DNA of 60,427 bases, counting the filler, from Jimgerdemannia flammicorona (Eukaryota): NCBI GenBank assembly GCA_003990765.1. It is 3 parts of 3 records of this genome, joined end to end, with 100 filler letters (N's around TTAATTAATTAA, not from the genome) between each part and the next. Parts side by side here need not be neighbours in the genome. Positions count along the whole stretch, not along the records: positions 1 to 20,080 come from RBNJ01001768.1; positions 20,181 to 40,255 come from RBNJ01001769.1; 1 more part is not named here. One strand, written 5' to 3'. The notes under the pieces are model-generated. The model made no database searches and had not been told where the DNA came from. It saw only the letters and a list, made by a program, of their open reading frames with translations. Made by a program: the position numbers and the translations under genes. Every line of letters begins with the position of its first letter. Position 1 is the first letter of the stretch. This document shows positions 10,577-37,850 of this stretch, piece after piece.

Positions 10577-11832
10577 TTAGGCACTGTCTGGGTAGTCCTC
10601 AATGACATCACCATTGATTGCATTATCTCTGATGAAGTAGTCATCCAGGAAAAGTGGTTCATAGATTACTTCTCCTTATTTGCTAAGGTAATAATACATT
10701 GGAACTTTGTCTCCATCCCACAAGATGACATCATCTGTCTCATATGCTGGATAAGGTGTTGGTGGGTGAAGGAGGGGTGCATCATCTTTGCTTTCATTGG
10801 TTTCACTATTTGTATACCTTCTATAGGTTACGGTACTATGAGTCACAGAGTTATAGTAGGCTGGTGGCTGTGGTTCATGTCACTCGTACTTAGGTGGTAG
10901 AGTGGTTGGTTCAATCTCAAGGGTTGTCTGGAGGTATAGATTGTATTCTCCAGTCTCTTCATTATAGTTGAAGTAATTGGGGATGAATGTAGATTAGTAT
11001 TCATACCAGTGGTCATTGTCCCAATAAGTCTCATATACTGTTATGAATTGTTATAAGTTTATCAGCAAGATTGGTAGTGTGATCAGGGTTGGCAGGGATC
11101 CTTAACTAGGGGTCATGTTAGCATCAGAGGGATCATTGTCTTCTGCTTCATCTTTATCGAAGTGGATTATATCATAGATGTCCTTCATGGTATATCCAAC
11201 TTGGGGCATTTGCAGGATCTGATCATTGAGGTGTGGGAAGGTTCTGTCTGTGATTTCGACATACTCGAGGTACTTGTGGTTGAGTTCTTGTATCATGTCA
11301 TCGATTTGGCCATAGGACAGGGTAGTAATCATTTCGGTTGTAGTAACTCAGAGGTGGGAAATAATAGTGCTATACTCATAGAAGAGTTCTCGATATTTGC
11401 AGGTGATGAGCTTCTGGTGTTGAGACATCTGGGTGATGTCTATATCATGGTGGTGTTTGATCATGTCTTCCAGGAGGCAGCCGATCTAGTAGTAGCTTGA
11501 GATTTGTCCAATTCAGTGGATCTCACTAAGCATGTTCAGAGCATTCCATCAGGCTTCCATGAAGTAGAGGGGTGCTAGGCTATGGATATTTGGGGTGTGG
11601 CTCGATTGACAATGGTATTCCAAATGTCAGCATGGATATGGGTATAGATCTCGGTGTGGTAGTGGTGTTAGACAAAGTAGTTTTTCATCAGGAAGGAGTA
11701 GGGGGGGAGGCCCCCCTAGGGGGATCAGATAGGAGGGGGGCTCACTGTATTTATATAGGATAGATGAGATTAATAAAGGGAAGGAGTCCAAGTGACTATA
11801 AAAAAAAAAAAGGTATAGATCTCGGTGGTCAT
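10577..11832 (-). pseudogene. Family-A LTR (U3) accessory ORF, 5'-LTR copy
   Basis: ATG ACC ACC GAG at 11832. Interrupted by an insertion (11657-11811) and a 13-bp deletion near 11590. One frame runs from 11590 to the stop at 10577-10579. Confidence 0.75.
11657..11811 (+). mobile_element. Short poly(A) retroposon (LINE 3' tail or SINE-like), second family
   Basis: AATAAA and poly(A). 16-bp TSD GGTATAGATCTCGGTG at 11641-11656 and 11812-11827. Absent from the sister LTR. A homologue lies at ~16040-16145. Confidence 0.85.
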
Positions 11833-12120
11833 ATTTATGTGTTTGGAAGTTATAGTTATTGTTTGTTTTGGTTCTTTGATTCGACATGTCTTGGTGCTCG
11901 GTATATATGCATTTGATCCTAATTGGTAAGATTCTGTTTGTATAAATCTTGTGTTCTGTGACTTCATATTAACTCAGCTTTGTGCACTGTGACTTTGGTT
12001 TGACTCAACTTCGTGATCAAGCAGGTGATTTCCAGATTTGTTCAGAGCTCATGTGTGATTTCAGTGGCTTGTTCAGAGGGTGATGTGTAATTTCGGTGGC
12101 TTGGAGGTTGTGTGCTTACA

Positions 12121-12900
12121 CCAGAACAATCCAGATCAATTCCTATAAGGATTAATCTCAGTTTTCTAAGACCCCAGTATCCAGATTAGACTCCCTCAAG
12201 ATCCTATCTTTATCTCCTACTTTGTAGAGGAAAATGTCATAGACTGAAGAGCCCCTGATCTCTTTGCTCTCTCTACTACTAAATATAGTAATGTCATCTC
12301 ACTAATTGATATATATAAAATATATAAAATATACAAAATAGATGAGATACTTACAGAAATATTTGCTGACCTTATCTTCTTTAAAGATATCCTGACCTCT
12401 GATCTTGATAATAGTGATGAAGATGAAGTCCCTAGAGTTCTAAATATTCTGCTCTAAGTTCTTTATATAACTATTGAAATTATTCTAGTATTCTGATCTT
12501 ATATAACTATTTATATAGATACTCAAATTTGTACTTATAATCTGAAGTTTTCTGTATTCAAGTACCTTATTTATTTAGTTATTGAAATTTATATTTAGTT
12601 TTATAACTTAGCAATCATTGAATTATATTTTATATAAATATCTCTCTCATTTCCTTTAAAATAAACTCAGTATTTAAATACTCAGTATTAAAACTACTTA
12701 AGAAGTATAGAAGTTCTGGTCCTTTACTCAATTTTAAGTAAGCAAATCCAAGAGACAATAGAACAGTTTAAAGATAAGATATTTGAGGACTATAAGATCT
12801 TAAAAAGATACTCCAATAGAACTTGCTTATAAGAAACTTATAGTTGGTCTAAGAGATATATCTTGATATATTTGGAAAGCTTAGTGCCCACTATATAATA
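12121..12900 (+). repeat. Family-B LTR remainder (ORF 3' half with stop at 12455-12457, then R/U5), strongly decayed
   Basis: Reverse-complement match to 36344-37100. Ends CTATATAATA (from CTATGTGACA). No PBS follows. Confidence 0.85.
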
Positions 12901-13280
12901 GTAAAAGAGTGATTATGATAAACCAGTTAGGTGCTAGACTGATAATAGCTATCAGAGTATTATAAGTACTATCTTAGTAGAGTTTTTTAATTGACTAGCT
13001 AGAGGTAAAGTAGTGCAGAGACTAGTATCCTGATTATACTCAACTAAAACTAGAAGCTGATACAGTAATATAATCAAGACTTATAGGCTTAGAGAATGAG
13101 ATCTTTCTTATAAGATAGTATTCAACTAGAACTAAGAGCTAATATAGTAATATAATTGGGGCCTACAGACTTGGAGAGTAGAATTGGGATCTTTTCAGAT
13201 CTTAGCTTATATATTAGTTCTTTTGGAGTAGATTTTATATATATATTAGTCCTTTACTTATCTGTCTTAAATTCTTTTTA

Positions 13281-15601
13281 TGTAATGGTTCTAGTTTCTA
13301 AATAAGGAAGTGACTTATTCTGATGATTCTAAGTAGCTCAAAGAGATACTTAAGGATTCAAGTATTCTCAAAGAATTTCTGAGAGAAAATATTCTGAGAC
13401 TTTATTCATGAGAACAAAGGGGATATTTATACAAGATCTGAAAGAAGGATCTGGAAGAATCTGAGAAATCAAAGGAAAATATCAAGAGGAAAGTTCTTGG
13501 CAAAGATGACAAATGATGATAAATAAAGTTCTACAAGTTTCCAGAATATTCAGTGACTAGCTAAATAAGTACTAGAGGATGCTCAGCACCAAGAAAGGAT
13601 TTCTAAGCATTTAGAAAGTACTAGAAGGTTGTAGAATATTGAAGAAAGACAAAGAAAAGAAATAAACTATGCTAAAATGTTACATCTCCCTCTCTTTAAG
13701 AATCAATATCCTTGTTGAATTCTCAAAGTTATACATAATAAATAATAAGACTAAAAGAAACTTTAAATTAAATATATCAACTCATTGGCAAGGATTGGTC
13801 ATCCTTATATAAGGCAAGGGCCAAAGTATTATCTTGATTAGATGAGAACTGGTTCGAATCTCATTGGTTGTAGGATTTATAGAGTTTTCCTATATCTCTT
13901 GTTTCTGATGCTATATCTCTTAGAGAGCTCTGATGCATAATGTACCTGATCAGCACAGTAGGTCATCTACTATCCAAGAGGAGAACCTCACAGGCAGTCA
14001 ATGAGTTTCTTTTTACTTGAACTCTTAGATGAGGTCTTGGGAGTTCTTGAGATTGGCAGTAGGTTCTCAGATAGCATCATATTCAGGGTAATCCATCCAC
14101 TTGACTAGGTATTCTATGCAATGGTATTGGACTCACTTGTCTAAGATTTTCTCAACTTCATACTTGATGTGGTCTTCAACTATGACTGGTGCTGATGGTG
14201 TCAGAATTCAGCCAAGATATGGAGGTGACTGGTTCTAGACTTTAAGTTGTGACACATGGAATACTGGGTGTATATGCATAGTTGTTGGCAAGTTGAGGTG
14301 GTAAGACCAGGTGGAGACTTGCTTGGTGATCTCAAAGGGTCTAAGGTATTTGGGCTGGAATTTGGCTAACTAGTGGTTGACTTGAGATTGAGCCTTAATG
14401 TTGTTGGCTTTGAGTAGAACTATATCTCTAATATTGTATATAACATCTCACTAGTGCTCCCAAATGAGTCAAATCAATTCAAATCAAATCGAATTGAGGG
14501 TTAAACAAGTCGAATTGAATTGGGGATTTTTCAATTCAAATCAATTCGAATCAAATCAAAAGTCAAATCGAATTGAGAGTCTGATTCAAACCCTAATTTT
14601 CAAAATGCAATAACTCAGCATAGACTCATCCAAATCTAACATACTTTAGCTTGTTAGAATTACATTAATATGGTGAATCTAACAGGCTAAAATATGTTAA
14701 ATTTGGATGAGTATTCGTCGAGTTATTACATTTTTAAAATTAAGGTTCGAATTGAACTTCAAATCGAATTGGACCTTTGATTCGATTTGAATCAAATTGA
14801 ATTGGACCCTTGATTCGATTTGTTGGGAGCACTATATCTCACTGCTTCTTATCTGCATACTTAGCTTGATGTTGCTGAGCCTTTTGTAGATTCATAGTGG
14901 CGATCTTGAGAAGGGAATCCATTTTGTCAATAAGGTTCTAGGCTATAGGGACTTGTGTGTGACTGGATTTCTGGAATGGGACTAGGCTTGCAGGGGTCTT
15001 GGGGTTTTGACTGTAAAGTAGCTGAAATGGGGAAAGACTAGTTGATGATTGGGTAGCATTATTGTAGGTGAACTTGATATAGATCAGATAGTGGTCTCAA
15101 TTATCTTATTCATAAGACATATAGTTTCTGAGCATTTGTTCAAGTATTCTGTTCATTTACTTGATCTGTCCATCAGTTTGAGAGTGAAAGGCAGTGAATA
15201 TAGTGATTTGGGTTCCAAGGGTCTTGAAGAGTGCTTGTTAGAAGTGGCTTGTGAACTTAGAGTCATGGTTACTGATAATTACTCAGGGAAGTTCATAATG
15301 GCAGAAGACAGTCTTGAAGAAGATTCTTGCAATTTCTGGGGCAGTGGCATTAGTTGTGGTTGGCTCGATGATTATAATCTTAGTGAGATGGTCCACAAAT
15401 ACAACAATAGCATCATAGCCTGTTTTGGTTTGTGGGAGTTGCACAATGAAGTTCATTGTGACTTGTTTAAACTTCTTGGTCAGAATTGACAAGGATTGTA
15501 GAAGACTGGTGAGTGCTTAGTTGCTTGACTTATTTCTTTGGCAAAGATCGCAGCTTTGGACATACTCCTTGATTTCCTTGAGCATATTTGGCCAGTAGTA
15601 G
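13281..15601 (-). mobile_element. Element C: truncated chromovirus related to E (integrase, chromodomain, PPT, 3' LTR 13281-13684)
   Basis: LTR resembles 54308-54770. PPT at 13685-13700. Integrase FIVQLPQTKTGYDAIVVFVD and chromodomain YEVEKILD...YLVKWMDYPEYDAI*EP. Confidence 0.9.
14452..14834. mobile_element. hAT-type MITE, 383 bp, inserted in element C integrase
   Basis: 12-bp TIR TAGTGCTCCCAA/TTGGGAGCACTA. 8-bp TSD CATCTCAC/TATCTCAC. AATCGAATTG subterminal repeats and a central palindrome. Confidence 0.9.
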
Positions 15602-16030
15602 TATAAGAGGATTGCTTTTTAGAGTAACTGTTACATAGTTCTAGAAGGGTTTTTTGGAAGTTCTAGATGTTCTAGAAGACCGTTTTCTTATGGTCAAGAT
15701 CAATTACATATAGAGTATGTCCTCTATACTTATTGATTTTAAGTTCGGGTTGACATCTCAACTAAAGTCCTTTTTTGGACTAGTTCTGGATGTTCAGGAT
15801 TTTCCATATTTCAGGAAGTTCAAGAAACTAAGACCAGCTTAGTTGAATTGGCATATTGCTGCAGACAATACCCAATTAGGAAATTTCATAATAGGGTTAG
15901 GAGTGGAACCTAATAGGAAGTAGATTTACTTAAGAGTGGTTTGTAGGTTATTAAATAGGTTTATTCGCTATTCATGATATTGCTATACTAGAAGTAGTTA
16001 TACATATCAAGGGGTATTGTGGGAAAGTAC
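15602..16030 (-). repeat. Partial third copy of family-A LTR (U5/R)
   Basis: Matches 9910-10330. It truncates the element C integrase. Confidence 0.9.
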
Positions 16031-16039
16031 TCAGAAGTT

Positions 16040-16145
16040 GTATTCGGATTGTTCAGATAGGGGGTGGGATCACTGTAATTATATAGGATAGATGGGTATT
16101 AATAAAGAAAAGGAGTCCAAGTAACTATAAAAAGAAAAAAAAAAA
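16040..16145 (+). mobile_element. Poly(A) retroposon tail, same family as 11657-11811
   Basis: Shared CACTGTA.TTATATAGGATAGATG...AATAAAG...GGAGTCCAAGT.ACTATAAAAA. The 5' boundary is approximate. Confidence 0.75.
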
Positions 16146-16159
16146 ATAATAATAATAAT

Positions 16160-18240
16160 TATCAAGCTCATTCTCTATAAATCCACATTCAACCTCTCCT
16201 GTACTAAGTTCAAGTTATATTCAGCAGCCAGTTCCTCCTCTTTAGCTGTCTTTGCCTCCAGCCCAACCAGAAGCTCAGCCAACTCTCTATCCTCTTTCTC
16301 CTCAAAGTCCTCATGATACTCTAGACATGCCTCCTGTCAAAGTTGCAAACCATACTGCTCTGTCCAACAGTAGGTAGCCCACTCACCAGCAATAACTGCC
16401 AGCTCAGCCTTCCTCTCCTCATCAACCTCATATCCCTCCTTCTCTAGGAAAATAGCAAGTACCTCTACCTTCAGTACCTCTACTACTTCATCTCCATGCA
16501 GAATCTATATCCAATGCTCCTTACTTATTACTTTTAAGTCTACTTCCCCTAACTCCTCAGCTGTAAGGTTATCCATCACTTGGCTCATCTACAGCAGGTT
16601 TCCCACCTTCTTCCCTCTTGGTATCTCTAGCCTTTCCACATCCAGCATCATGGTATCTGTCCCTATACTTGTAGCCTCATCCCACCCCTCCTCTGAGACA
16701 TCCACCAGCTCATCCTTGCCAACTGCCACCACCTGTCCTCCTTTTGCTATGTCAGAAACTCCAAAGTGTACTCACTGAGTGCCCCACATCAGCTCATCCT
16801 CAGCTGCCCAACCTCTCACAGCAGAGCCTCATCTGATCAGAAGAGGAGTGTCTTCCAAGACTAGCTCCTAGACCTCAAACATACCATCAGCAAATGAGTC
16901 TTTGTGCATCATTTTCTCAGCCCCATCCAGGCTCTCCTCTGTATCTCCTCCTCTCTTACTAGCCCAGACACTCACCTCTATACCTCTAGACTTCTCAGGA
17001 CCTCCAGAATTTACCTTCACCCCTTCTCTCATACTCACCAGCAGCTCCCTCTGCTTCTTGTACCCTTGAGCTCTCTTCCACTGTCTCTTATCAGTGCAAA
17101 TATGTTTCCTACCTACAATCTCTAAATGTGTCAACTCTATATATAACTTCCAGGCCTTTGTCCTCTACTCTACTGCTCCACTCATCTCCTCCAGAGCCTC
17201 CAACAAGTCCTCCTCCTCCTCTTCACTCCCTTTCACTCTCGATATCTTACAGACAAAAGCCCCCCACATTATCACTGAAGGCCAGTCACTTGTCTTCCCC
17301 ATGGTCTTCCTCTCAGCTAGCCAAATCCTAATGTCCACATCTCCTATCCTGAAAGCAGTCCCCTTCCACATCTGGAAACTAATATTGACCACATTGCTAT
17401 ACTTTGCTATCACCTCCTCTATCCTCCTCCTAGTCTCAACCTTCATCATTATAGGTATCCCCTTTACCAGTAACTGAACCACCCTGGGGTTCCACCTCAA
17501 ACACTATACCATAGAGACCACCACCTCACCAATAACCACTCTAGATTTCAATACTTCCTCTAGTGGACCTACCTTCTCAAAACCCACTTCAACTCTCTCC
17601 AGTCTCTTCAGGAACTTTACTGAGACAGCTCCAGCTACCTGCTCTGAGATAATTCCCAGAACCATTCTCGCTATTACAGCTAAGCCCTGGAAGTACAAGA
17701 TTACTATGAACTCTGAGATTGACTTCTTGAGTAATAGTGCCACTGCCAGCCCTATCACACTATCAGCCAGGTCTTCTTTCCACTTTGGGCCCATCTGCCC
17801 AGCCCCTCCATCAACTATTACATCTGGATTTTTTTCCAGATTCCCAGTCACACCACTATCAGCAATCCCACCCCTACTCTCATCAGCTACTCCACCAGTC
17901 CTTTCTCTTGCCAGCTGAGGTCTAGCACCTCTAACTCCTCCTTCTTTCTGCTTCTTCTTCCCTTCTGCCTGCCCACTATGAGCTCTTACTGACCAATCTC
18001 CAGCCTTCAGTGAGTCTGCAAAGCTCCTCTCCTTCTGCTCTCTGGCCCCTCTACCAGTGCCACTTCCACTGCCTGAGCTGCCCTGCCCACTCAGACCACT
18101 GAAAGATCCTATCCTAAGTCTATACCCTCATCCAACATATTGCCAGTTGAAGGCCCCAGGTCCACCTGACCTAGCATATATATCTGCTTGCTCATTGGTT
18201 GCTATAACCTTAGTATCTTTCTCCAATAAATGGGTCAAAA
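16160..18240 (-). pseudogene. Decayed L1/Tx1-like LINE ORF1 region
   Basis: ORFs 17504-17851 and 17165-17500 align with ORF 41218-42264 (CLRWNP vs CLRWDP; FQMWKGTAFRIG vs FMFWEGTKLRNG). Boundaries are approximate. Confidence 0.75.
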
Positions 18241-19218
18241 GTATATTTCAAAGTTTGTGTTACATGAGTGATAGTGGAGAAAGATGCGTATTAATCTGAC
18301 TATTCAGTCAAATAGAAGGTTGTCTATTTGATAGTAATAGATACAAAACTACTAAGATTAAATATAGAGATGATAAGATTTATAAGTTTCTTAGTACTAA
18401 TGATAATAAAGTCAGTAAGCTTGATCCTTTAAAGAATATAACTGATATTATTTAATTTGGCCTAGAGAATATTATTGCTAAGCATATTATTTTTTAAAAA
18501 CACAAGTATATATAGACTATTGATAGTTAGAATAAACTAAATAAGAAAGCTATTGAAGTATAAGTCTTTGTAGTTATAGATTAATAGATACTCCAAACTA
18601 TAAGATAGAATAGATATTATCTGATATAAAAAATAATAATCTATAAGATAGAGATGCTAAATAGATAGGTATTGCTAAATAAGATAAATAATAGTAATAT
18701 TATAATTAGAGTTAAAGAGATTGAGTATATAGAGAGTAGTTGGTAAATATAAGGAGATATATTCTGATATAATATCATATTATTCATTATCCTATAATAT
18801 CTCTAGCTCAAGTATCTTAAAATAATAATAGCTATTAAAAAGCTAAATAAGGAGATATCAATTAATATATTGTCACGTAGTGGTCGCTGAGTCCTTCAAA
18901 TATGCCAGATTCTCTTCAAGGTGTATCTCTTAGACTAACTCAAGTTTGTTATAAGCAAGTTCTTATTGGAGTGCCTTCCTAAGGTCTTATAGTCCTCAAA
19001 CTTCTTATCTTTAACTGTCTTGTTATCTCTTAGATTGCTTGCAAGGAAGTGTGTGTAAGTGAACTTGACTGAAACTTGACTGACTTTATTTCAGAGGAAA
19101 TAAGAGAGGTATTTATACAAAATATAATTCAATGGTTGCTAAGATATAAAGCTAAATATAAATTCCAATAACTAAAACTACTGAGTTCTAGGGCTGGCAT
19201 TATTTAGTACTACATCAA

Positions 19219-19345
19219 AATACTGGTGCTGGAACAATTTTGCGTCACCTCAGAATACCGGTGCTGGAACAATTTCGCGTCACCTCAGAATACCGGTGCT
19301 GGAACAATTTCCAGTGTTACATGAGAATACTGGTGCTGGCATTAT
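19219..19345. repeat. ~35-bp tandem repeat with core AATACCGGTGCTGG, 4 units
   Basis: Cores start at 19219, 19254, 19289 and 19326. Confidence 0.9.
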
Positions 19346-19363
19346 CTAGTGTAACAAAGAACT

Positions 19364-20080
19364 TTAGAGCAGAAAGTTCAGGATCATGGGAGTTTCATCA
19401 TCATCATCACTGAAGGAGATGAGATCCGCGAATTCGTCATGTAGGTCACGCGTCTCATGTACTTCGTCATTTTCGCGTGCCTTGATGTTGCGCGGGATGA
19501 CGTCATCGATGACGTCATCATGTTCGGGTGTGGTGGGAAAATCGGGAACAAGGTCTGGAGCTCTCCAGTCTATGAGGTTCTCTTCCACAAAATAGGGGAC
19601 AAATGTGGGGTCCTGGGGGGATCTAACCTGGATGCTTGAGCCTTGGAATACTGAGATCAATCCTTGCAGGAATTGGTCTGGGTTGTTCTGAAGGATAGGG
19701 TGCCAGAAGTCTTCTACTTCTTCGCTGTTGAGGGTGATGGTGGACTGGGCTTCTGTAGCTACTCTGGCTTCTAGTGCATTGATGCGGTGGGATGACAGGT
19801 CTCTGAAGTCTGAGACTCTAATATACTCCAAGTTGGGGATTGACCATGGTGCATGCCTGAAGATCTGATGGATCTTCTTTGCTGTCCTTGCCTCACATAG
19901 GTCTATGGGGGTGGCATCTTGTAGCTCTTGAGGGCTGGCCTGTGGGAACTCCCGGCAGAGGAGGTTTCCTATTTCGTATTCCTGCCACATTTGGAGGCAT
20001 TCGGTGGCAATGGTGATCCTTATTTCCATTTCACGGCAGTAGAGGATAAAGTGATAAGGGTCTGCAGTACCCAGGTTGAT
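19364..20080 (-). CDS. Family-B LTR accessory ORF, open, 5'-partial
   Basis: Stop-free from the contig edge to 19364 and closely similar to ORF 36792-37607. Confidence 0.8.
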   Translation of the reverse strand: MNLGTADPYHFILYCREMEIRITIATECLQMWQEYEIGNLLCREFPQASPQELQDATPIDLCEARTAKKIHQIFRHAPWSIPNLEYIRVSDFRDLSSHRINALEARVATEAQSTITLNSEEVEDFWHPILQNNPDQFLQGLISVFQGSSIQVRSPQDPTFVPYFVEENLIDWRAPDLVPDFPTTPEHDDVIDDVIPRNIKARENDEVHETRDLHDEFADLISFSDDDDETPMILNFLL

Positions 20081-20470: not shown

Positions 20471-22318
<1,848 letters not shown>

Positions 22319-24795: not shown

Positions 24796-24830
<35 letters not shown>

Positions 24831-29123: not shown

Positions 29124-30959
29124 TATCATATAGTGGTTGCTGAGTCCTTCAAATACGCCAGATTTTCTTCAAGATGTATCTCTTAGACTAACTCAAGTTG
29201 TTATAAGCAAGTTCTTATTGGAGTGCCTTCCCAAGGTCTTATAGTCCTCAAACTTCTTATCTTTAACTATCTTATTATCTCTTAGATTGCTTACAAGGAA
29301 GTGTGTATAAGTAAAACCGGAACTTGACTGAAACTTGACTGACTTTATTTCAGAGGAAATAAGAGAGATATTTATACAAAATATAATTCAATGGTTACTA
29401 AGATATAAAGCTAAATATAAATTCTAATAACTAAAACTACTAAGTTCCGGGGCTGGCATTATTTAGTATCATATCAAAATACCAGTGCTGGAATAATTTT
29501 GCATCACCTCAGAATACTGGTGCTGGTATTATCCAGTGTAACAAAGAACTTAGAGCAGAAAGTTCAGGACCATGGGAGCTTCATCATCATCATTATCACT
29601 GAAGGAGATAAGGTTCACGAATTCGTCATGCAGGCCACGTGTCTCATATACTTCATTGTCACACATTTCATGTACTTCGCATGGTATGTCATGCGAGATG
29701 ACATCATTGATGACATCATCACATTCGGCTATAGTGGGAAAATCAGGAACAAGGTCTGGAGCTCTCTAGTCTATGAGGTTCTCTTCTACAAAATAAGGAA
29801 CAAATGTGGGGTCTTGAGGAGATCTGATCTGGATACTTGGACCTTGGAATACTGAGATCAATCCTTGCAGGAATTGGTCTGGGTTGTCCTGAAGGATAGG
29901 GTGCCAGAAGTCTTCTACTTCTTTGCTATTGAGGGTGATAGTGGACTGGGCTTCTGTGGCTACCATGGCTTCTAGTACATTGATATGGCAGGATGACAGA
30001 TCTCTAAAGTCTGAGACTCTAACATACTCCAAGTTGGGGATTGACCATAGTGCATGCCTGAAGATCTGATGGATCTTCTTTGCTGTTCTTACCTTATATA
30101 GGTCCATGGAAGTAGTATCTTGTAGCTCTTGAGAGCTGGCCTGTGGGAACTCCTGGCAGAGGAGGTTTCCTATTTCATATTCCTGCCACATTTAGAGGCA
30201 TTCGGTGGCAATGATGATCCTTGTTTCCATTTTGCAGCAGTAGAGAATGAAGTGATAGGGGTCTGCAATACCCAGGTTAACACTAGGAGTCCTTCTTGAG
30301 TGGGTCCTCATGGCTCTTCTGATGTCTTGGAACATCCTTTCCTCGATCAAGATACCTTGATGATTTCTTGACCTTGAGGTTTGGCAAGCAGCAGGCATTT
30401 TGTTTGTGATAAGTCTTTGAGCTATTTTTGGGATTAGTGGTTCTTGTTGATTGCTGCTACTGTGGTTCCTTGATCCTTCTTTTATATTCTTCAGGATGCT
30501 TGTGCTGTGGTCACAATGACTCACAGTTGGTCATCATTGCTCATCTCATATGCCATATGATCTTCTTGTGCTCCAATCTGGTGGCTTATAAGGAAAGGCT
30601 GTCTCCTGTACTAATGTCATCATTCTGGGGTCACCGTTATATCTTCCTCCTGAATAAGGATCTTCCTGAGCATCCTTATTCATTGTCCAGTCCTGAAAAA
30701 TTTGCTGATCCCATAACCTCTGGCAAGGGGTTGAAAACTGGTGTTTATGGGCTGGCGTCTTCCCTTTGTATTTTGGTGTGATGGTGAAGGGTCGCTCTCT
30801 TTATATAGAGCAAGGGCCTGATTCTGATCTTGAGCAATCAGTTGACGGTTCAAACTCCTCTGACTGCAAAAGTCTTCATAGATGAGTAGTTGTCAGTGCC
30901 ATATCCCTTAGAGAATGGTCTAGACAGATAGCCTGCTGATCACGAGACATGCTGTTACA
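29124..30959 (-). repeat. Element B 3' LTR (~1.8 kb)
   Basis: Colinear with 36344-37850. The outer end is tentatively the minus-strand TGTAACA at 30959. No clear PPT is visible. Confidence 0.8.
29550..30398 (-). pseudogene. Family-B LTR accessory ORF with two point stops
   Basis: Single frame MPAA...LNFLL*. Stops at 30192 (CAA->TAA) and 29766 (TGG->TAG). Confidence 0.88.
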
Positions 30960-32202
30960 ATTCATGAACTAGAACCTCATGGGCAGTCATCATGTTTTGC
31001 TTCTCTTGTATAGGTTTGTAGTACTTCTTGAGTCTATTCTTATGTACCATGGTAGGCAGTATAGTCCCTGAGATTTTTCTAAGCCAGAAGGTAGTTCCCT
31101 TGATATCTTGTACGTAGAAGGGTCCTTCCTATTTGGGTTCCAGTTTTTGTGACCATGAGGCTTCTACCATATTTCGATATAGTAGAACCTTTTCTCCAAT
31201 TCGGATGGGTTCTAGGGCCTTGTGATTCTTTTCTGCATTCTTCCTTATCAGTGCTTGTGATTTGGTGATGTAATCTTCAGCCTTCTTCCTGATTTGGTGT
31301 AGTCTCCAGATTTCTGCATCAACCTGTCTCCAAGTTAGGTCTAGATTTGTGGCTGAGGTTCCATCAGAATCTTCTTCTCTGAAGAGCAGCTCTCTTGGGG
31401 TAAAATGTGTGCTCTGTGACCATATGTCTTGTAGGACAGAGAGGGCAGTTGGGAGATAGTTATCCCAATTCTCATATGTCTCTGAGATCTTCGCTAAGAT
31501 GTTCTTGAGGGTCTTATTGGTTCTTTCTGTCTGTCCATTTCCTTGAGGGTAGTATGCAGTGGTCTTGATGTGCTGGATCTTGTATTTCTAATATATTATC
31601 TTGTGGAATCTATTGATAAATTCTGTACTGTGGTCTGTTGTAATTTGCTTTGGTATCTTGTAGTGGCAGATAATTTCTTGGTATAGGAAATTGGCTATAG
31701 AGAGGGTATTGGCTTCTTGTAATGCTCCTGCCTCTATCCATTTGGTGAAGAGGTCTACAATAACTATAATATAGTGGTTTCCTGATAGTGTTACTGGTAG
31801 TGATCTAATGATATTCATTGCGATGTGGTGGAAGGGGATAGGCTCAATTCTTGATGATCTGGGTGCCTGGTCTTGCTGATCTTATTTCTGTTTTTGGTAC
31901 TTGTCACACTCTTTGACAAATTGGCACAGGTCTTTTTCCATCTTGGGCCACCACATAGTTCTTCTTGCCTTATCATATATATTGATTCCTCCTAAGTATC
32001 CTTGCTTGTATACTTCCTTCATTACTTGATACTTCTTATGTTCAGATATTACTAGCTTTTCTCCTTTTCTGAGTGTAGTATTGTCTAATTCAAACTGTTT
32101 CCAAGTCTGGTTGATGATGGTAATTGTCCAGGGTTCAAGGTGGTTGGGCATCTTCCGCTGCCCAAGGTAGCTGATTAATCCATAGTATAGCTCCTTATTC
32201 AT
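30960..32202 (-). pseudogene. Element B integrase (own ORF starting MNKELYY)
   Basis: WWPKM...FVKECDK zinc-domain remnant, VDLFTKW, TDHSTEF, TAYYPQGNGQTERTN and EGPFYV. Confidence 0.88.
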
Positions 32203-33430
32203 GTTGAATAGTCTTGATAGAGATGTTTCGGGGTATCCTTAAGAGTGCATCAGCATTGGTGTTGGTCTTTCCTGGGCAGTGCTTGACAGTACAGTCATAT
32301 TCTTGCAGTCTGTAGATCCATCTGGCATATATTCCTTTGGGGTTCAGAGTGTGGAATAGCCAGACAAGAGCGGAATAGTCTGTCTGAATGGTGAAGTGTT
32401 TTCCAGCTAGGTAGTAGTGGAACTTGTCTACTGCCCAAACTACCACTAAGCATTCAAGCTTACATGACTCATAGTTCTGTTCTACTCTATGGGTACCTCA
32501 GCTTGTGTAGGAGATGACATATTTATGTCCATCTTTCTTCTGAGCTAGGACTGCTCCAAGTCCTATAGCACTCGCATCTGTCTGCAGGATGAATTCTAGG
32601 TTTCAGTCTGATCTTCTGAGGATGGGTGCTTGGATCAACCTGGTCTTGAGTTCATTGAAGGTTTCTTGGTACTCCTTGGTCTATTCAAATTTGATCTCCT
32701 TCTTCAGTAGCTCATAGATAGGTGCTGCAATGTTGGAGTATTCTTTGATAAATCTTCTGTAGTAGCTGGCCAGTCTAAGGAAGGCGTGAACTTCTGTGGT
32801 TGTTCTGGGTCTTGGGTAGGCTGCAACAGCCTCAATCTTCATGGGGTCTGTGTGGATTCCAGTCTGGTTGATGAGGTGTCCTAGGTAGGTGATTTCTTGA
32901 GCTACAAACTTGCATTTCTTGGGCTTGATGTAGAGGCCATGCTCCTTGAGCCTTGTGAGGACTAGCTGTATGTGATTGATATGTTCCTGTGCAGTGTTGC
33001 TGAAGATGATCACATTATCAATATAGACAAAGAGCCATTTTCCAATCTCGTTGCTGAAGACTCTGTTCATCATTCACTGGAAACTTGCTGGGGCATTGCA
33101 CATTCCAAATGGCATTCGCAGATAGATGTAGGTGGCATTAGGTATGATGAAGGCTGATTTCTCACTGGCATCTTGAGTGAGACCGATCTGATGGAAGCCT
33201 GAGAACAGATCCAAGGTGGTGTAGTATTTGGCTTCACTTCCAAGGGTGGTAAGGATTTCTTGAATATTCGGCAAGGGCTGCCTATCCTTCTTGGTGATGG
33301 CATTGAGTTTCCTGTAGTCAATGCAGAGTCTTGGTGCAAACTCTCCAGGCTTGCTTCCTTTCTTTGGGGCAAGGACAATAGGTGAGGCCCAGGGGCTGAT
33401 AGCTTGCTTGATGATTCCAGCTTCTTCCAT
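32195..33430 (-). pseudogene. Element B RT and RNase H
   Basis: [39 protein letters not shown](D), QTDASAIGLGAVL and NADAL. Confidence 0.93.
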
Positions 33431-33709
33431 TTCCTTGAGTTTGGCTCATAGCCACTCTCTGTAGGCAGGTGGTATGGGTCTGGCTTTCTGGTAGATAGGC
33501 TTGGTATCACCAGTGTCAACTTCGTGGTGGTACTTGGGTTCTTGATTGTAGATATCCCTAAAGTCTGTAGCAAGTACTTCTTTGTTCTGGTATAGGATCT
33601 TGAGAAGTTGTTCCTCTAAGGGAAAGTTTTCTCCAATGGTATATGTGTGCTTGTTCTGGTCCTTGTTTTTCTTGTGCTCAAGTTCAGTAATCTTGGTGGC
33701 AGCATAGGC

Positions 33710-34120
33710 TCCTCTTTCAGTAGATCTAAAGCCTTGTTCTCCTCTCTTGGTTTTGATAAGTTCAGTGGCTTCTATGATCTTGGGCTTCTTAATTTCGTAG
33801 ATCAGCATCTGGGCAATCCTGTCATGCTTCTTGACTTCGAAGGGGGTAGTGTGGTTGTGATTTCTGACTATGAGAAAAATCTCACCAGTGTAATCAGGGT
33901 CAATTACTCCTCCTTCAACTGAGATTTCGCTTTTGGCCAGACTGCTCCTGGTTTTGATAATTCTGGCATGGTTTTCTGGCAACTTGACTCCAATTCCAGT
34001 GCCAAGTAGGGTGGTGGTCTGTGGTTTGAGGGTAGCATCTTAGATGCTGGCAAGATCCATTCCTATGGCTCCTTCAGTCTTATATTCTGGGATCTTGGCT
34101 TCAGGGTGAAACTTCTTGAC
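33710..34120 (-). pseudogene. dUTPase domain of element B (between protease and RT)
   Basis: GAIGMDL, RSSLA, GGVIDPDYTGEI, DRIAQML and RGEQGFRST. Confidence 0.92.
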
Positions 34121-34249
34121 CTTGAGAGTGATGTCTGGTTCTTATTCCTCCTCATCGTCACTGTCAGCTTAAAGCTCTGGGGGCTGGTCATCTTCTTCAG
34201 CTTTCCTTTTTGCTTTGGTAGCTTCTTGCTCATATTTTCATTGGTGGAT

Positions 34250-34390
34250 TTTCCTGACTTTACTGATACAGGACCAGCAGTCATTCAGGTGTTTGGAGTA
34301 GTACATTCTAGTACCATGGGGGCATCTTCCTTGAGGGGCATACCCATCGATGATCTTGTTATACCACTGCTCATCTGTGAGCTTGAGTGT
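34250..34390 (-). other. CPHG-x-CxxC module between protease and dUTPase of element B
   Basis: EQWYNKIIDGYAPQGRCPHGTRMYYSKHLNDCWSCISK (ORF 34238-34420). Confidence 0.75.
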
Positions 34391-34499
34391 CTTGTTCTTG
34401 TTCTTGTTCACCAAGTGCATGAAGACCTCTGTGTCTTCTTCATCTCCTTCCTCTATGTCTGGCAGGACTCCTTTGTAGATATTGATAGAAACTCATACC

Positions 34500-36223
34500 T
34501 TTCTCCCTCTGTAGTTGATCTGTATCTTCTGGGCATTGAGGTCAATGATGGCCTTGGCCTTGTGAAGTCATTGGTTGCCAATGAGGATGTCATAGTTGGT
34601 GGCGCTTGTAATAATAACATCTACTGGGATAGTAGCTCCTCTTATCTTGATAGAGACTTCTCAGATTTTGTCAAGGGGGGTAGCTCGTGTAATATCTACT
34701 GTGATATAGACCATTTTGGTAGACTCTTCAATATCCCAATCTAGGCAGTCAATTGCCTTCTTGCTCATGAGGCATCCTCCAGCACTAGTATCAATGATAG
34801 CATCAAAGATACAGTCTTCAATCTGGCAGGGGGTATAGGTTGATGTCTTGCGCTAGTCTTCGGATTCTTCACCTGAGTTCTCAGATTCTTCTTGTGCATT
34901 ATGAGCTTCTACAATCTTGTACTCTTAATTCTTGACAGTGGTTGCAAGTCCTACTCTCAATTGCTGTCTGAAGGCAGGGACTTCAGCTAGCTGCCCAAAA
35001 GTGGCATTGACCTTCTGTTCCTTGAGGTCCTTGTAGATGTCATACTGGTGGATCTTGGTCTTATGCAGCTTCTGTTCCTTCTTGCTCTCACTTTCTCCTG
35101 AGACTGAAGTAGTACCTTTGATGATTTGGTGGGTGGCCTCGTCTAACTCCATGTCTTGATCAATCTCCTCGTGTTGGGTCTTGCTTTGAATAGTGACAGC
35201 TGGAGTCTTTTTTAGTCTTCCAACTGGCTTGCTGTTGCTCTTCTTGTCATAGGGCTTGGACCGGGTTCTGGTACCTTCAGTAGCAGGGTAGAATTCGAGC
35301 TCCTCATAGTATTCTTCATCATCAGTATTACCAATCTCCTCAATGACTACTGCATTGGTTTGTTCTCTGGTTCTGCTAGCATTGCTTGGTTGGGTTTTGC
35401 ATCTTGTTTCGGTTATGTAATTCTTTGCATAGTGGCCTTCTTCTCTACATCTGAAGCATGTGATGTTATTGTGTTCTTCTATAGTAGCTGCAAATCTCTG
35501 CACTGGTCTCCAGTTGACACTTCAGACTTCTCTGACAACATCATCAAGGTGTACAGTCATCTCGGTGAACTGCTTGGCAAGTTCTTCCACTGGGTCAGCT
35601 TTGGCTATCTTGGGGGTAGGTGGGGTTGGTTGTCTGTTTACGACTGTGGTAGGTAAGATACTAGTTGGCTTTGATGGCTCCATCTTGATGCTAGTTATTT
35701 TCTCCATTGAGTATTCAGCAGGGTGTCTGGCAGTCCAATATCTCTGTGCAAAGACCACTTTTTGATCAAGGGTCAGTGTAGCTGGGGTAGACTGGATTGC
35801 TAGGGCAATTTCAGAGTGAACTCCTTTGAGGAAGATTGAATCTACTATTTGTTCCTTGAGGCGATCATCATAGCTAGCCAAGACAATCTGGTGGCAAATT
35901 CGGGTATAGAATGAGTTGGGATCTTCACTAAGTCTCTGGCAGATAGTATTGAGTTGATCCTTGAGAGCTTGCTTGATCTCTTTGGTATAATATGTTGTTC
36001 TGAGGAAGGCCTTCATATTGGCAAGTTTGGCTGCACCAGCATCAGCAATGGTGGCTGCATTGAACTTGTCTCTAGCAGGTCCTCTGAGGCTGACTGGTAG
36101 AAGGGCCAATTGAGCATCCACACCAAGGGCTCGTACGATGGCAAATTGTTCAAAGTCTTCAATGAAGGTCAGGATTGACTCTTCAGTAGTATATCTATAG
36201 AATGTAGGAGGATGCATTTCCAT
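34500..36223 (-). pseudogene. Element B gag (zinc knuckle) and protease
   Basis: ORFs 35522-36223 and 34925-35503 share one frame (CFRCREEGHYAKN). Protease AIIDTSAGGCL lies near 34790. Confidence 0.88.
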
Positions 36224-36324
36224 CTTATCTTAAATTCTTACAGGGGTGACTCTTGTAGTCAGGGTAGTTGTTGTGGGAGTTGTTCGTTTTTCAGCTTGAA
36301 AGTGAGAGATTCGTCTTGAATCAC

Positions 36325-36340
36325 CAGCCAATGGGTACCA
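36325..36340 (-). promoter_or_regulatory. PBS of element B (primer unassigned)
   Basis: Minus strand TGGTACCCATTGGCTG, 3 nt from the LTR end. Confidence 0.65.
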
Positions 36341-36343
36341 AGT

Positions 36344-37850
36344 TGTCACATAGTGGTCGCTGAGTCCTTCAAATATGCCAGATTCTCTTCAAGGTATATC
36401 TCTTAGACTAACTCAAGTTGTTATAAGTAAGTTCTTATTGGAGTGCCTTCCCAAGGTCTTATAGTCCTCAAACTTCTTATCTTTAACTGTCTTATTATCT
36501 CTTAGATTGCTTGCAAGGGATTGTGTATTGCACTGAAACTTGACTGACTTTATTTCAGAAGAAATAAGGGAGATATTTATACAAAATATAATTCAATGGT
36601 TGCTAAGATATAAAGCTAAATATAAATTCCAATAACTAAAACTACTGAGTTCCAGAGCTGGCATTATTTAGTACCACATCAAAATACCGGTGCTGGAACA
36701 ATTTCGCGTCACCTCAGAATACCAGTGCTGGCATTATCCAGTGTTACATGAGAATACCGGTGCTGGCATTATCCAGTATAACAAAGAACTTTTAGAGCAG
36801 AAAGTTCAGGATCATGGGAGCTTCATCATCATCATCACTGAAGGAGATGAGATCCGCGAATTCGTCATGTAGGTCGCGTGTCTCACGTACTTTGTGTATG
36901 TCGTGCGGAATGACATCATCGCCGATGACGTCATCATGTTTGGCGGGGAAATCGGGGACAAGATTTGGAGCTCTCCAATCTATGAGGTTCTCTTCCACAA
37001 AATAGGGGACAAATGTGGGGTCTTGGGGGGATCTAACTTGGATGCTTGGGCCTTGGAATACTGAGATCAATCCTTGCAAGAATTGGTCTGGGTTGTCCTG
37101 AAGGATAGGGTGCCAGAAGTCTTCTACTTCTTCGCTGTTGAGGGTGATGGTGGACTGGACTTCTGTAGCTACCCTGGCTTCTAGTGCATTGATGCGGCGG
37201 GATGACAGGTCTCTGAAGTCTGAGACTCTAACATACTCCAAGTTGGGGATTGACCATGGTGCATGCCTGAAGATCTGATGGATCTTCTTTGCTGTCCTTG
37301 TCTCACGTAGGTCTATGGGGGTGGCATCTTGTAGCTCTTGAGGGCTGGCCTGTGGGAACTCCCGACAGAGGAGGTTTCCTATTTCGTATTCCTGCCACAT
37401 TTGGAGGCATTCGGTGGCAATAGTGATCCTTGTTTCCATTTCACGGCAGTAGAGGATAAAGTGATAAGGGTCTGCAGTACCCAGGTTGATGCTAGGAGTC
37501 CTTCTTGAGCGGGTCCTCATGGCTCTTCTGATGTCTTGAAATATCCTTTCCTTGACCAAGATACCTTGATGATTCCTTGACCTTGAGATTTGGTGGGCAG
37601 CAGGCATTTTGTTTGTGGTAAGTCTTTGAGCTATTTTGGGATTGGGGTTCTTGTTGGCTGCTGCTACTGCGGTTCCTTAATCCTTCTTTTATATTCTTCA
37701 GGATACTTGTGCCGTGGTCACAATGACTCACAGTTGGTCATCATTGCTCATCTCGCATGCCATATGATCTTCTTGTACTCTGATCTGGTGGCTTGTAAAG
37801 AAAGGCTGTCTCCTGTGCTGATGTCATCATTCTGGGGTCACCATTACATT
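36344..37850 (-). repeat. Element B 5' LTR, outer end lost
   Basis: TGTCACA terminus. On the minus strand, TATAAATA at 36574-36581 and AATAAA at 36549-36554. Three 35-bp repeats at 36683, 36718 and 36753. Confidence 0.92.
36792..37607 (-). CDS. Intact 271-aa LTR (U3)-encoded accessory protein of unknown function
   Basis: Open frame with ACAAACAAA-ATG context. TATAAAAG at 37686-37693. Four copies in the window. Acidic C-terminus. Confidence 0.85.
   Translation of the reverse strand: MPAAHQISRSRNHQGILVKERIFQDIRRAMRTRSRRTPSINLGTADPYHFILYCREMETRITIATECLQMWQEYEIGNLLCREFPQASPQELQDATPIDLRETRTAKKIHQIFRHAPWSIPNLEYVRVSDFRDLSSRRINALEARVATEVQSTITLNSEEVEDFWHPILQDNPDQFLQGLISVFQGPSIQVRSPQDPTFVPYFVEENLIDWRAPNLVPDFPAKHDDVIGDDVIPHDIHKVRETRDLHDEFADLISFSDDDDEAPMILNFLL

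Follow-up and report, generated by a model that had tools for sequence, protein, structure and literature searches.

Sense open reading frames inside the LTRs of two Ty3/Gypsy families of Jimgerdemannia flammicorona: candidate accessory genes, probably unrelated to each other

We found that canonical-looking Ty3/Gypsy elements in a window of Jimgerdemannia flammicorona DNA (the whole stretch analysed, 60,427 nucleotides) carry sense ORFs inside the LTR. The frames of both families, A and B, lie wholly within the LTR limits and upstream of the main TATAAATA and AATAAA, in agreement with the original prediction. Our best reading is that these are two unrelated orphan accessory genes, each in the U3 part of its own family's LTR and each possibly expressed from a transcript contained in that LTR. 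We give the structural statement and this mode of expression, taken together, a probability of roughly 55%, a figure that excludes any guess about function.

Two distantly related Ty3/Gypsy families are present, both on the minus strand, with LTR limits set by TG..CA ends and polypurine runs, plus the TSD CCAGA for family A. The elements and LTR copies are as follows.

359..12120, minus strand: family A Ty3/Gypsy element, with the 5-bp TSD CCAGA at 354-358 and 12121-12125
9910..12120, minus strand: family A 5' LTR, ~2.2 kb
359..3624, minus strand: family A 3' LTR, with a 1.2-kb insertion at 1639-2836 and an ORF copy with 7 stops
29124..37848, minus strand: family B Ty3/Gypsy element, recognized by repeats, Pfam matches, LTR ends TG..CA and a polypurine run
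36344..37848, minus strand: family B 5' LTR, 1505 bp
29124..30641, minus strand: family B 3' LTR, ~1.5 kb, with an ORF copy (29766-30398) interrupted by 2 stops
18871..20080, minus strand: extra family B LTR copy, whose 5' part enters a run of N
1..358, plus strand: left half of B', a degenerate copy of a B-like LTR ORF
12121..12457, plus strand: right half of B', reading ...NPDQFL...PYFVEENVID...LNILL, with stops

Family A is ordered LTR, gag, dUTPase, PR, RT, RNase H, (IN), LTR, and Pfam places dUTPase at 7436-7774, Asp protease at 6980-7225, RVT_1 at 6281-6976 and RT_RNaseH at 5231-5794. Family B reads LTR, gag, zf-CCHC, (PR), dUTPase, RT, RNase H, IN, LTR, with Pfam matches to zf-CCHC (34928-35521), dUTPase (33449-34039), RVT_1 (33077-33445 and 32684-33073), RT_RNaseH (32198-32497), Integrase_H2C2 (31885-32238) and rve (31591-31881), and the polypurine run AGGAGGAAGA precedes its 3' LTR. 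The dUTPase lies 5' of the protease in A and abuts RT in B, and RT identity between the two is 35.7% over 182 aa (tblastx of internal regions). Together with their different LTR sequences, the domain order and an RT only ~36% identical bear out the view that these are two distinct families. The insertion of element A has split B' in two, and of the 218 B' codons that align, 6 are stops. The ORF segment appears to be missing from a related LTR variant at 15602-16140, an observation that goes against our reading.

The family B LTR follows the predicted layout of TATA-like box, leader, ATG, ORF, repeats, main TATAAATA and AATAAA.

37686..37696, minus strand: upstream TATA-like box GAATATAAAAG, 79 nt upstream of the ATG
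36792..37607, minus strand: family B LTR ORF (protein P0001), intact, 271 aa, stop codon included, ATG at 37607
36675..36766, minus strand: tandem repeat of a 35-nt unit (2.6 copies), downstream of the ORF stop and before the main TATA
36574..36581, minus strand: main TATAAATA, conserved in the related locus L001 as well as in the three B LTRs
36549..36554, minus strand: AATAAA, 27 nt past the main TATA

No ATG occurs in the leader between the TATA-like box and the ORF start. In the LTR copy at 18871-20080, the ORF is open across all 232 comparable codons (read from an internal ATG, it encodes 221 aa, 19364-20029), and the 35-nt repeat has one unit more. L001 has in common with B the GAATATAAAAG box, the ATG-free leader, the ACAAACAAA-ATG context, the TATAAATA and the AATAAA, and the intervening sequence is diverged. 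As L001 begins with its first base exactly at the TATA-like box and ends beyond AATAAA, it is not an LTR-limited transcript and is uninformative on the start site.

The upstream box, a good and conserved TATA, might instead be the promoter of genomic RNA, with the ORF as first cistron of a very long R/leader and thus outside U3. However, transcripts from it would reach the TATAAATA and AATAAA ~1.1 kb downstream in the 5' LTR and end before gag, R would exceed 1 kb, and the downstream pair has the classical design of a U3/R junction and is kept in 4/4 B-type LTRs. We regard this arrangement as very unlikely.

Very probably the family B ORF is a genuine LTR gene under selection. Six proteins among 316 word-index candidates matched it at E<=0.01 (BLASTP identity 57-92%), and their clusters list 16 members. 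An exhaustive search with the B profile among 1,835,955,588 proteins returned 5 representative clusters at E<=0.001, down to E 1.4e-15, all of them B-like. An alignment of 12 sequences shows identities to P0001 from 93% down to 28%; 9 columns are invariant and 20 nearly so, mostly at residues 110-211, and the start MPA/MPP is kept in 6/6 sequences that reach the N-terminus. The B relatives all come from short environmental contigs. Every relative sits on a contig of 540-4848 bp, and none could be placed in an LTR present in two copies.

The pattern of change between B and L001 indicates that purifying selection keeps the B protein across lineages. Over 270 aligned codons there are 299 nucleotide differences (144 transitions and 155 transversions), with an amino-acid identity of 0.552 and 0 stops. 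When the observed substitutions were re-placed at random in 2000 runs, the neutral expectation was an identity of 0.364 +/- 0.020 with 7.9 stops, and 0/2000 simulations reached either observed value; by Nei-Gojobori, pN was 0.273 and pS 0.725, a distance ratio of 0.13. The two LTRs of one B element were intended as a neutral control but are not a clean one, as their identity of 0.836 also exceeds the simulated 0.779 +/- 0.015 (0/2000), with a pN/pS of 0.28, so that context-dependent C-to-T mutation inflates apparent constraint. The identity excess over simulation is much larger for L001 (0.19) than for the same-element pair (0.06), and half of the L001 changes are transversions, but the bias in the baseline is genuine.

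These relatives also bear on the idea that each ORF is a captured piece of a cellular gene, retained for a while with no role for the element. LTR retrotransposons are described as capturing host sequence in the part of PMC7264820 consulted, and in that of PMC10787394 U3 is the portion of fungal LTRs most open to exchange. Against capture, no cellular homologue was found: the B relatives among the 1.84 billion representatives are all short-contig ORF copies with the same start and end, the A protein has one relative only, and Pfam and PDB searches were empty. Moreover, the B protein has stayed conserved between lineages whose DNA differs at 37% of sites, which implies long-term retention. We give capture the slimmest chance of the alternatives considered here.

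Family A likely has a real selected LTR gene as well, decayed in this copy, judging from its single relative and the nature of its stops.

11748..11757, minus strand: upstream TATATAAATA, in the 5' LTR only, ~190 nt before the predicted ATG
10577..11560, minus strand: family A LTR frame, 5' LTR copy, 327 codons with 9 stops (4 TGA, 4 TAA, 1 TAG)
10442..10515, minus strand: two exact CTGACTCAGCA motifs (10442-10452 and 10505-10515) in the interval from the A stop codon to the main TATA
10382..10389, minus strand: main TATAAATA, then AATAAA at 10261-10266

The frame had been described as open, with its stops read as Q or R, a description that the 9 stops of the 5' LTR copy contradict. From 11332 down (residues 77-326) it matches P0019, an intact protein of 247 aa and the only relative found for A, with 142/250 identities (57%, E 2e-103). 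Every stop is a single C-to-T or G-to-A step from a sense codon, and the genome's repeat copies differ almost solely by transitions, the two A LTRs showing 110 transitions to 3 transversions and 72 to 3 in two aligned segments. At the QQ pair of P0019 each A copy has one stop, at adjacent codons, which implies independent hits. Five of the nine stops are common to both LTRs, four of them TGA, and these four could be parallel CpG hits; if the shared stops were inherited instead, the ORF of element A was already broken when the element transposed, which would make the ORF dispensable in cis.

The predicted layout of the A LTR holds in part, as the sense frame, main TATAAATA and AATAAA are present, but the frame is interrupted and the upstream TATA is confined to the 5' LTR. 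The stretch at ~11640-11810 that holds TATATAAATA is bounded by direct repeats CCGAGATCTATACC and is missing from the 3' LTR, and two short upstream ATG frames lie between TATATAAATA and the predicted ATG. Short repeats had also been predicted; TRF reported no tandem repeat between the A stop and the main TATA, and what stands are the two exact copies of CTGACTCAGCA. With <=1 mismatch this motif has 4 matches in the window versus 1.28 expected, and 5/100 shuffles reach 4.

It had been proposed that the A and B ORFs are homologous and encode a transactivator or anti-silencer with an HTH-like DNA-binding domain and an acidic activation tail. On this view both would go back to a single ancient LTR-borne gene, which either was present in an ancestor shared by the two families or passed from one to the other by recombination. 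The two frames, in two families within one genome, do agree in position, orientation and overall layout, and both proteins have acidic tails and a short acidic DDxIxxDxI stretch. The by-eye protein alignment behind this proposal, however, proved no better than chance. BLASTP of A against B gave a best E of 1.8 (15.4 bits) and did not recover the aligned block, profile comparison with hhalign gave a probability of 0.9% (E 0.062, identity 4%), and the B profile against P0019 gave 1%. In the hhalign control, 16/200 column shuffles reached the observed A-B score; 8 of these 16 scored 132-140, and the two of them with alignments shown span only 6 and 12 columns and look like artefacts; when the 8 are dropped, 8/192 reach the score. 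The search of 1.84 billion proteins with the B profile yielded no A-like cluster. The A side of the aligned block lies mostly upstream of residue 77, where the sole intact A relative begins, and each A copy has 3-4 stops in the stretch before that residue.

When the non-coding LTR parts of A and B were aligned locally as DNA, the scores were likewise at chance level (114/200, 7/200 and 70/200 shuffles reach the observed scores), and only a 13-nt TATA core is common to them. On the other side, the top hhalign alignment falls in the predicted register (B 93-148 versus A7 columns 49-104) and a second weak match is collinear with it (B 197-217 versus A 273-293, P 0.31), so a very remote homology is still conceivable. 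In all, we consider it quite likely that A and B are not demonstrably homologous, and descent from one LTR-borne gene appears distinctly unlikely.

Searches for families and folds gave no support to the predicted helical DNA-binding (HTH) domain. Pfam returned 0 families for P0001, P0019, P0020, P0022 and P0023 and one chance-level match for P0011 (E 0.23), and PDB sequence searches gave 0 matches at E<=10. The AF2 models had mean pLDDT values of 33.5 and 49.0, and the best fold matches were weak (Foldseek E 0.66; VIA Z 3.8). The N-terminus of the B protein is basic, its helical core is conserved, and its acidic tail is studded with hydrophobic residues and ends in LNFLL. From these features we guess, quite tentatively, at a trans-acting product that would affect either the expression of the element itself or silencing by the host.

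We propose that each LTR may be a self-contained mini-gene. The upstream TATA-like box in U3 would start a transcript (~1.1 kb in B) that reads the ORF, passes the main promoter and terminates at the LTR's own poly(A) signal, and the main TATAAATA would make the genomic RNA. As the B main TATAAATA stands 27 nt before AATAAA, R would be very short. For such an LTR-contained transcript we see about even odds, and we infer its start site, poly(A) site and translation from sequence. If the model is true, both LTRs and also solo LTRs would be able to express the ORF.

Alternatively, the ORF could be expressed like the accessory genes of complex retroviruses and like MMTV sag. Only the 3' U3 copy would then be read, from a subgenomic mRNA spliced between a donor in the 5' leader and an acceptor just before the ORF, and the TATA-like box would be idle. 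The LTR layout necessarily places the 3' U3, and hence the ORF, in genomic RNA; by eye, and unscored, a GTAAGA is found few bases before the gag ATG, an ATAG ~20 nt before the ORF ATG and a CTAAT upstream in the 3' LTR. However, the intron would span ~6 kb, and most introns of fungi are shorter than 100 nt. Neither the 5' LTR nor L001 preserves the CTAAT, and splicing would leave unexplained the conserved TATA-like box and the ATG-free leader of B and L001. Splicing of this kind therefore seems unlikely to us, and we prefer the mini-gene.

Among the closest known systems are the retroviral accessory genes of U3, namely sag of MMTV and nef of HIV/SIV, which overlaps U3. As in those genes, the A and B coding frames are in the sense direction, inside or overlapping U3, and are not needed for the core gag-pol machinery; a frame so placed is duplicated at both ends of the provirus. 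Unlike sag and nef, the frames described here belong to env-less Ty3/Gypsy elements, their proteins had no sequence, family or fold similarity to known proteins in our searches, and their expression from a promoter inside U3 is a proposal. The VANC proteins are anti-silencing proteins of VANDAL (Mutator-like) transposons and are likewise transposon-encoded, lineage-specific, fast-evolving accessory proteins that may work in trans on members of their own family. VANC, however, belongs to a DNA transposon and not to an LTR element, Pfam found no family in either the A or the B protein, and the likeness is by idea only.

The dUTPase-bearing Gypsy elements of basidiomycetes, such as PosPlaTy3 of Postia placenta and elements of Phanerochaete, carry dUTPase at the Pol N-terminus or between PR and RT depending on the family, and A and B vary in the same way (PMC2864245, as far as consulted). 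A figure legend there lists an 'add. ORF' of unknown function, and the parts of its text consulted contain no claim of an ORF within the LTR. Finally, additional ORFs (aORFs) are described for LTR retrotransposons, including the env-like ORFs of Athila/Bagy2, gene23 of Grande, RIRE2, Retand and Boty (PMC7264820, in part). Like the ORFs described here, these aORFs are orphan, present in most copies of a family and without relatives beyond the elements, and a regulatory role has been suggested for them. The part of the review consulted places them internally, either upstream of gag or after pol and before the 3' LTR, and in either orientation, whereas the A and B frames lie within the LTR itself, so that LTR-only copies also carry the ORF.

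The window is eukaryotic DNA whose GC content ranges from 0.21 to 0.51. Self-comparison, together with a Pfam run on its 101 stop-to-stop frames (minimum length 75 aa), revealed LTR retrotransposons nested in one another and a small number of host-like genes. Two Ty3/Gypsy elements, A (delimited by self-comparison, LTR ends and target-site duplication [TSD]) and B (delimited by self-comparison and LTR ends), were found on the minus strand, together with further LTR copies of the B type, one of which (B′) is degenerate and split by element A.

Features of elements A and B and of related LTR copies
359-12120, minus strand: element A
9910-12120, minus strand: 5′ LTR of A
359-3624, minus strand: 3′ LTR of A, carrying a 1.2-kb insertion at 1639-2836
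7436-7774, minus strand: dUTPase domain of A (Pfam)
29124-37848, minus strand: element B
36344-37848 and 29124-30641, minus strand: LTRs of B
33449-34039, minus strand: dUTPase domain of B (Pfam)
18871-20080: further B LTR copy
1-358 and 12121-12457, plus strand: halves of B′ on either side of element A, with a clean CCAGA duplication

The LTRs of A start with TGTAAG and end in TTACA, the polypurine run AAGAAGGGGAGAG precedes the 3′ LTR, and the 5-bp TSD CCAGA lies at 354-358 and 12121-12125. Those of B run from TGTAATGG to GTGACA, and the polypurine run AGGAGGAAGA precedes the 3′ LTR. Direct LTRs with TG..CA ends and a polypurine tract, as expected of Ty3/Gypsy, are thus present in both elements; the TSD was read for A, and the flank of B is AT-rich. 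Pfam coordinates gave the Ty3/Gypsy Pol order of PR, RT, RNase H, and IN, shown in A only as far as RNase H, as no Pfam match to an integrase was obtained among its frames of at least 75 aa. Nor did an env-like ORF stand out among the window frames of this length.

The two elements share 35.7% identity in RT (182 aa) and 40.4% in dUTPase (94 aa), the dUTPase domain precedes PR in A and lies between PR and RT in B, and the non-coding parts of their LTRs have only a 13-nt TATA core in common. Because of this distance, the different dUTPase placement, and the unlike LTRs, the original prediction was fair in describing two unrelated families, and the LTR coordinates place both ORFs inside the LTR limits, as it had claimed. 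Gypsy families of a basidiomycete are likewise reported to carry dUTPase at varying places in Pol (PMC2864245).

The B ORF is an intact frame encoding a protein of 271 aa (P0001). The layout predicted for its LTR is present, with an ATG-free leader between the TATA-like box and the ORF start, which has the context ACAAACAAA-ATG.

Layout of the B LTR
37686-37696, minus strand: upstream TATA-like box GAATATAAAAG
36792-37607, minus strand: B ORF
36675-36766, minus strand: tandem repeat of 35 nt, 2.6 copies, 3′ of the ORF stop
36574-36581, minus strand: main TATA TATAAATA
36549-36554, minus strand: AATAAA

All four B-type LTR copies of the window contain the ORF, which is intact in one, open throughout its readable part in another, and broken in the 3′ LTR copy (two stops) and in B′ (six stops). 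In the copy at 18871-20080, the frame is open across all 232 comparable codons, its start being unreadable because the first pair of N runs cuts the 5′ part of the LTR. There are four such runs of 44 N, paired 12 bases apart (20081-20124 and 20137-20180; 40256-40299 and 40312-40355).

Relatives of the B protein were found by a word-index search (six proteins at E ≤ 0.01 among 316 candidates) and by an exhaustive HMM search (1.84 billion proteins, of which five representative clusters reached E ≤ 0.001). All of them come from environmental assemblies, where their contigs measure 540-4848 bp. In an alignment of 12 sequences, identity to the window protein falls from 93% to 28%, the conserved core spans residues 110-211, and all six B-family sequences that reach the N-terminus start with MPA or MPP. 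A metagenome scan with the B alignment yielded 301 stretches matching the pattern, two of which passed tblastn. One, L001, is a true relative (1345 nt, 323-aa ORF) in which the TATA-like box, the ATG context, TATAAATA, and AATAAA of B all recur, separated by diverged sequence. The other, L002, was rejected as a chance match, having 33% identity over 78 aa and no ATG-initiated ORF of at least 80 aa at the match, in apparently unrelated low-GC DNA; five loci from a viral-contig scan with the same alignment, each a 28-residue match at 39% identity, were likewise dismissed as chance. An ESM Atlas query with P0001 gave a best feature score of 0.87 (the bar of the tool is 0.9) in clusters of unnamed Basidiomycota hypothetical proteins, which we treat as a lead only. 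We would place the source of the window among the fungi, probably the basidiomycetes, from its type-B carboxylesterase, from its dUTPase-bearing Gypsy elements, a kind reported in basidiomycetes (PMC2864245), and from the taxa of these closest, sub-threshold clusters. Protein and profile searches, covering 1.84 billion representatives for B, found no relatives of A or B outside ORFs of this kind.

Over 270 codons, comparison of B with L001 by the Nei-Gojobori method gave a pN of 0.273 and a pS of 0.725, for a distance ratio of 0.13. Because nearly all differences between copies in this genome are transitions, the method was checked on the two LTRs of the same B element, which should be neutral; their pN/pS of 0.28 indicates that the plain ratio is biased here. 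We therefore substituted a spectrum-matched test, itself with an imperfect control, in which the observed substitutions were placed type by type at random sites in 2000 runs. The amino acid identity between B and L001 was 0.552 with no stops, compared with 0.364 ± 0.020 and 7.9 stops in the simulation, and none of the 2000 runs reached either value. The same-element control also exceeded its simulation (0.836 versus 0.779 ± 0.015, 0/2000), so mutational context accounts for part of any excess. The identity excess of L001 is three times that of the control, and half of its differences are transversions. With the baseline bias from mutational context as a caveat, we conclude from these comparisons that B is a real gene on which purifying selection acts. 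That at least one real gene lies inside an LTR is well supported.

The ORF of A is present in both full A LTRs of the window and is broken in both. The frame at 10577-11560 (minus strand) contains nine stops (four TGA, four TAA, one TAG) and the 3′ LTR copy seven stops plus the insertion; five stops are common to both copies, four of them TGA. Such stops could mean that A never coded, a reading rejected on account of the transition-only divergence of the copies and of an intact relative of 247 aa, P0019, which matches A residues 77-326 with 142/250 identities (E = 2e-103) and, used as a query, returns itself alone. At a QQ pair of P0019, each A copy has a stop, at adjacent codons, and the two stops are independent events. 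The intact relative argues that A was formerly a coding gene at least from Met77 onward, residues 1-76 lying outside the match.

The predicted layout suits A less well than B. The upstream TATA-like box of A (TATATAAATA, 11748-11757, minus strand) is present, yet it lies in a stretch of ~170 bp that is absent from the 3′ LTR, and two short upstream ATG frames follow it. Two CTGACTCAGCA motifs of A (10442-10452 and 10505-10515, minus strand) contain TGACTCA, a core sequence of bZIP sites of the AP-1/Gcn4 type, and are candidates for such sites. They lie immediately 5′ of the main TATA, in the position expected of enhancer repeats.

A third, shorter A-like LTR end lies at 15602-16140 (minus strand), within an integrase-like frame of another element. 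It has the R/U5 part in common with A, its TATA segment matches ~11640-11810, a stretch otherwise found only in the A 5′ LTR, and it seems to be without the ~1.25 kb that holds the A ORF. Presence in most copies of a family and absence outside elements, the pattern of a conserved additional ORF (aORF), was found for B (4/4 copies) and for A (2/2 full LTRs), with this LTR end as an apparent exception. The 1.2-kb insertion at 1639-2836 is GC-richer and splits the A ORF of the 3′ LTR, leaving an MKDIY-coding stretch on either side; its frames match no Pfam family. Its first 150 bp are 85% identical to 60257-60405, at the end of the window, which makes it a probable LTR or piece of another repeat family.

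The original prediction had read the A and B proteins as homologous from a by-eye alignment. BLASTP gave a best E of 1.8 (15.4 bits) and did not recover the proposed block, which lies mostly within A residues 1-76, before the P0019 match. The profile-profile comparison that had been suggested as a check (hhalign) produced no significant match, with a probability of 0.9%, an E of 0.062, and 4% identity over 56 columns for A versus B, and a probability of 1% over 13 acidic columns for the B profile against P0019. The top A-B alignment falls in the proposed register, and a second match is collinear with it (P = 0.31). When the columns of the A alignment were shuffled, 16/200 shuffles reached the observed score; eight of these score 132-140, and the two of them that were printed cover 6 and 12 columns and look artefactual, so that excluding the eight leaves 8/192. 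An exhaustive search of 1.84 billion representatives with the B profile found no A-like protein. The pattern exists, yet chance yields such a pattern about once per 12 to 25 tries, and with neither significant sequence nor significant profile similarity to join the two ORFs in one family, we regard remote homology as improbable. Overall, the original observation is confirmed in part, but the by-eye homology is not supported, and the claim of one system in two families should not be passed on.

Fold and domain searches were sparse in matches. At E ≤ 1, Pfam had no match for five of six family members and one chance-level match for the sixth, and a sequence search of the PDB returned nothing at E ≤ 10 for the B profile or P0019. 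AF2 modeled B at a pLDDT of 33.5 from the first alignment and 49.0 (pTM 0.41) from a more diverse one; in the better model, 46 residues reach pLDDT 70-90, within a helical core that spans roughly residues 60-160. With this low-confidence model, Foldseek found no match at E ≤ 0.001 (best E 0.66), and VIA-align found no chain at Z ≥ 5 among 48,161 (best Z 3.8). Among the weaker scores, at Z 2.9-3.6 and within what the tool describes as noise, were some winged-helix chains (Cdt1 C-terminal domain, SarX, MarR-like, IdeR). The Atlas model of P0019 has a pLDDT of 0.39 and a pTM of 0.15, and ESM Atlas gave no usable feature match for it, with a structural TM of at most 0.30. Searches with the B model thus give no evidence of a new fold, and the suggested helix-turn-helix DNA-binding domain finds no support in Pfam, Foldseek, or VIA-align, nor do models of such low confidence refute it. 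In composition, the B protein is basic at its N-terminus, a property that the remote members P0022 and P0023 have partly lost; its core is helical and conserved, and its acidic tail, which includes hydrophobic residues, finishes in LNFLL. P0019 is acidic over its whole length, with many Y, P, Q, and T residues.

Element A is nested in the ORF of B′, the fourth, heavily mutated B-like LTR copy, in the opposite orientation; B′ ends in ...DEDEVPRVLNILL, as does the P0006/P0021 subtype of family B. Differences between paired LTRs are overwhelmingly transitions (transitions to transversions 110:3 and 72:3 for A, 136:12 for B; for example, 9912-11188 versus 361-1638), CpA and CpG are the commonest substitution contexts, and stretches nearby drop to 21-31% GC (12-14 kb and 38-40 kb). 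Such a pattern points to C-to-T mutation by a process that is RIP-like or driven by methylation, and LTR divergence is therefore unusable as a clock here.

Several other stretches of the window deserve mention. The region at 16100-18300, which adjoins the third A-like LTR end on its upstream side, has extreme strand bias (GC skew −0.454 on the plus strand, GC 0.46) and many broken minus-strand frames rich in G, E, and K, none of which matches a Pfam family. More Ty3/Gypsy material occupies 48000-60427 on the plus strand, and reversed pieces of the same family lie at 13331-15366. Three host-like genes or gene strings are located between the elements.

Host-like genes and plus-strand Ty3/Gypsy features
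20474-22393, minus strand: type-B carboxylesterase in two frames, suggesting a short intron
26986-27672, plus strand: short-chain dehydrogenase
43398-46179, plus strand: BTB, MATH, and ubiquitin C-terminal hydrolase string
53277-53840 and 57017-57310, plus strand: RVT_1
53973-54284, plus strand: RNase H
58332-58568, plus strand: integrase zinc domain
59130-59423, plus strand: Tf2-type SH3
54308-54602 and 59919-60220: 300-bp repeat of this material

The selected B ORF sits between the upstream TATA-like box and the main TATAAATA and AATAAA of the LTR. The main TATA lies 27 nt before AATAAA, so the genomic RNA would start at about the poly(A) signal, R would be very short, and the signal would be used only at the 3′ end. 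A transcript from the upstream box would contain both the ORF and AATAAA and stop within the same LTR, giving an mRNA of ~1.1 kb, and every LTR, LTR-only copies included, could be an expression unit. The protein might instead be made from a spliced subgenomic mRNA of the 3′ U3, as in retroviruses, but this would need an intron of ~6 kb, and the candidate splice signals are not conserved.

Our best guess on function, to which we give a probability of about 0.3, is that the protein may be a trans-acting regulator of element expression or of host silencing. A wider proposal, which we consider quite unlikely, is that fungal Ty3/Gypsy elements carry "LTR genes," promoter-ORF-poly(A) units in U3 present at both ends of an insertion and in solo LTRs, whose expressed copies would fill the genome with a trans-factor that boosts transcription of the family or blunts silencing and C-to-T hypermutation. 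In its boldest form, A and B would be far-diverged descendants of one gene, moved between unrelated Gypsy lineages by U3 exchange.

A selected gene wholly in U3 changes the annotation of elements and solo LTRs, as solo LTRs become potential genes and not just promoters. If the LTR partly codes for a protein, LTR-based dating and the assumption that LTRs evolve neutrally fail. The gene would also offer a tractable fungal retrotransposon accessory protein, which might act in transcription control or RNA export, or protect the element from silencing or RIP-like mutation.

Textbook retrotransposon LTRs are non-coding control regions, and genes embedded in U3, such as MMTV sag and nef, are found in retroviruses. 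The literature searched, which covered journals outside subscription, yielded no description of a retrotransposon whose LTR contains a protein ORF. The crapaud study, in its accessible part, treats U3 as the variable, exchangeable part of the fungal LTR, but its LTRs are 339-443 bp long and non-coding (PMC10787394). The accessible part of a review places the aORFs of LTR retrotransposons in the internal region, either in the interval from pol to the 3′ LTR or 5′ of gag, whereas the A and B ORFs lie inside the LTR limits and neither is internal (PMC7264820). Given the internal position described there and the lack of an LTR-internal example in the literature searched, we class the A and B ORFs as accessory ORFs of LTR retrotransposons in an unusual, LTR-internal place.
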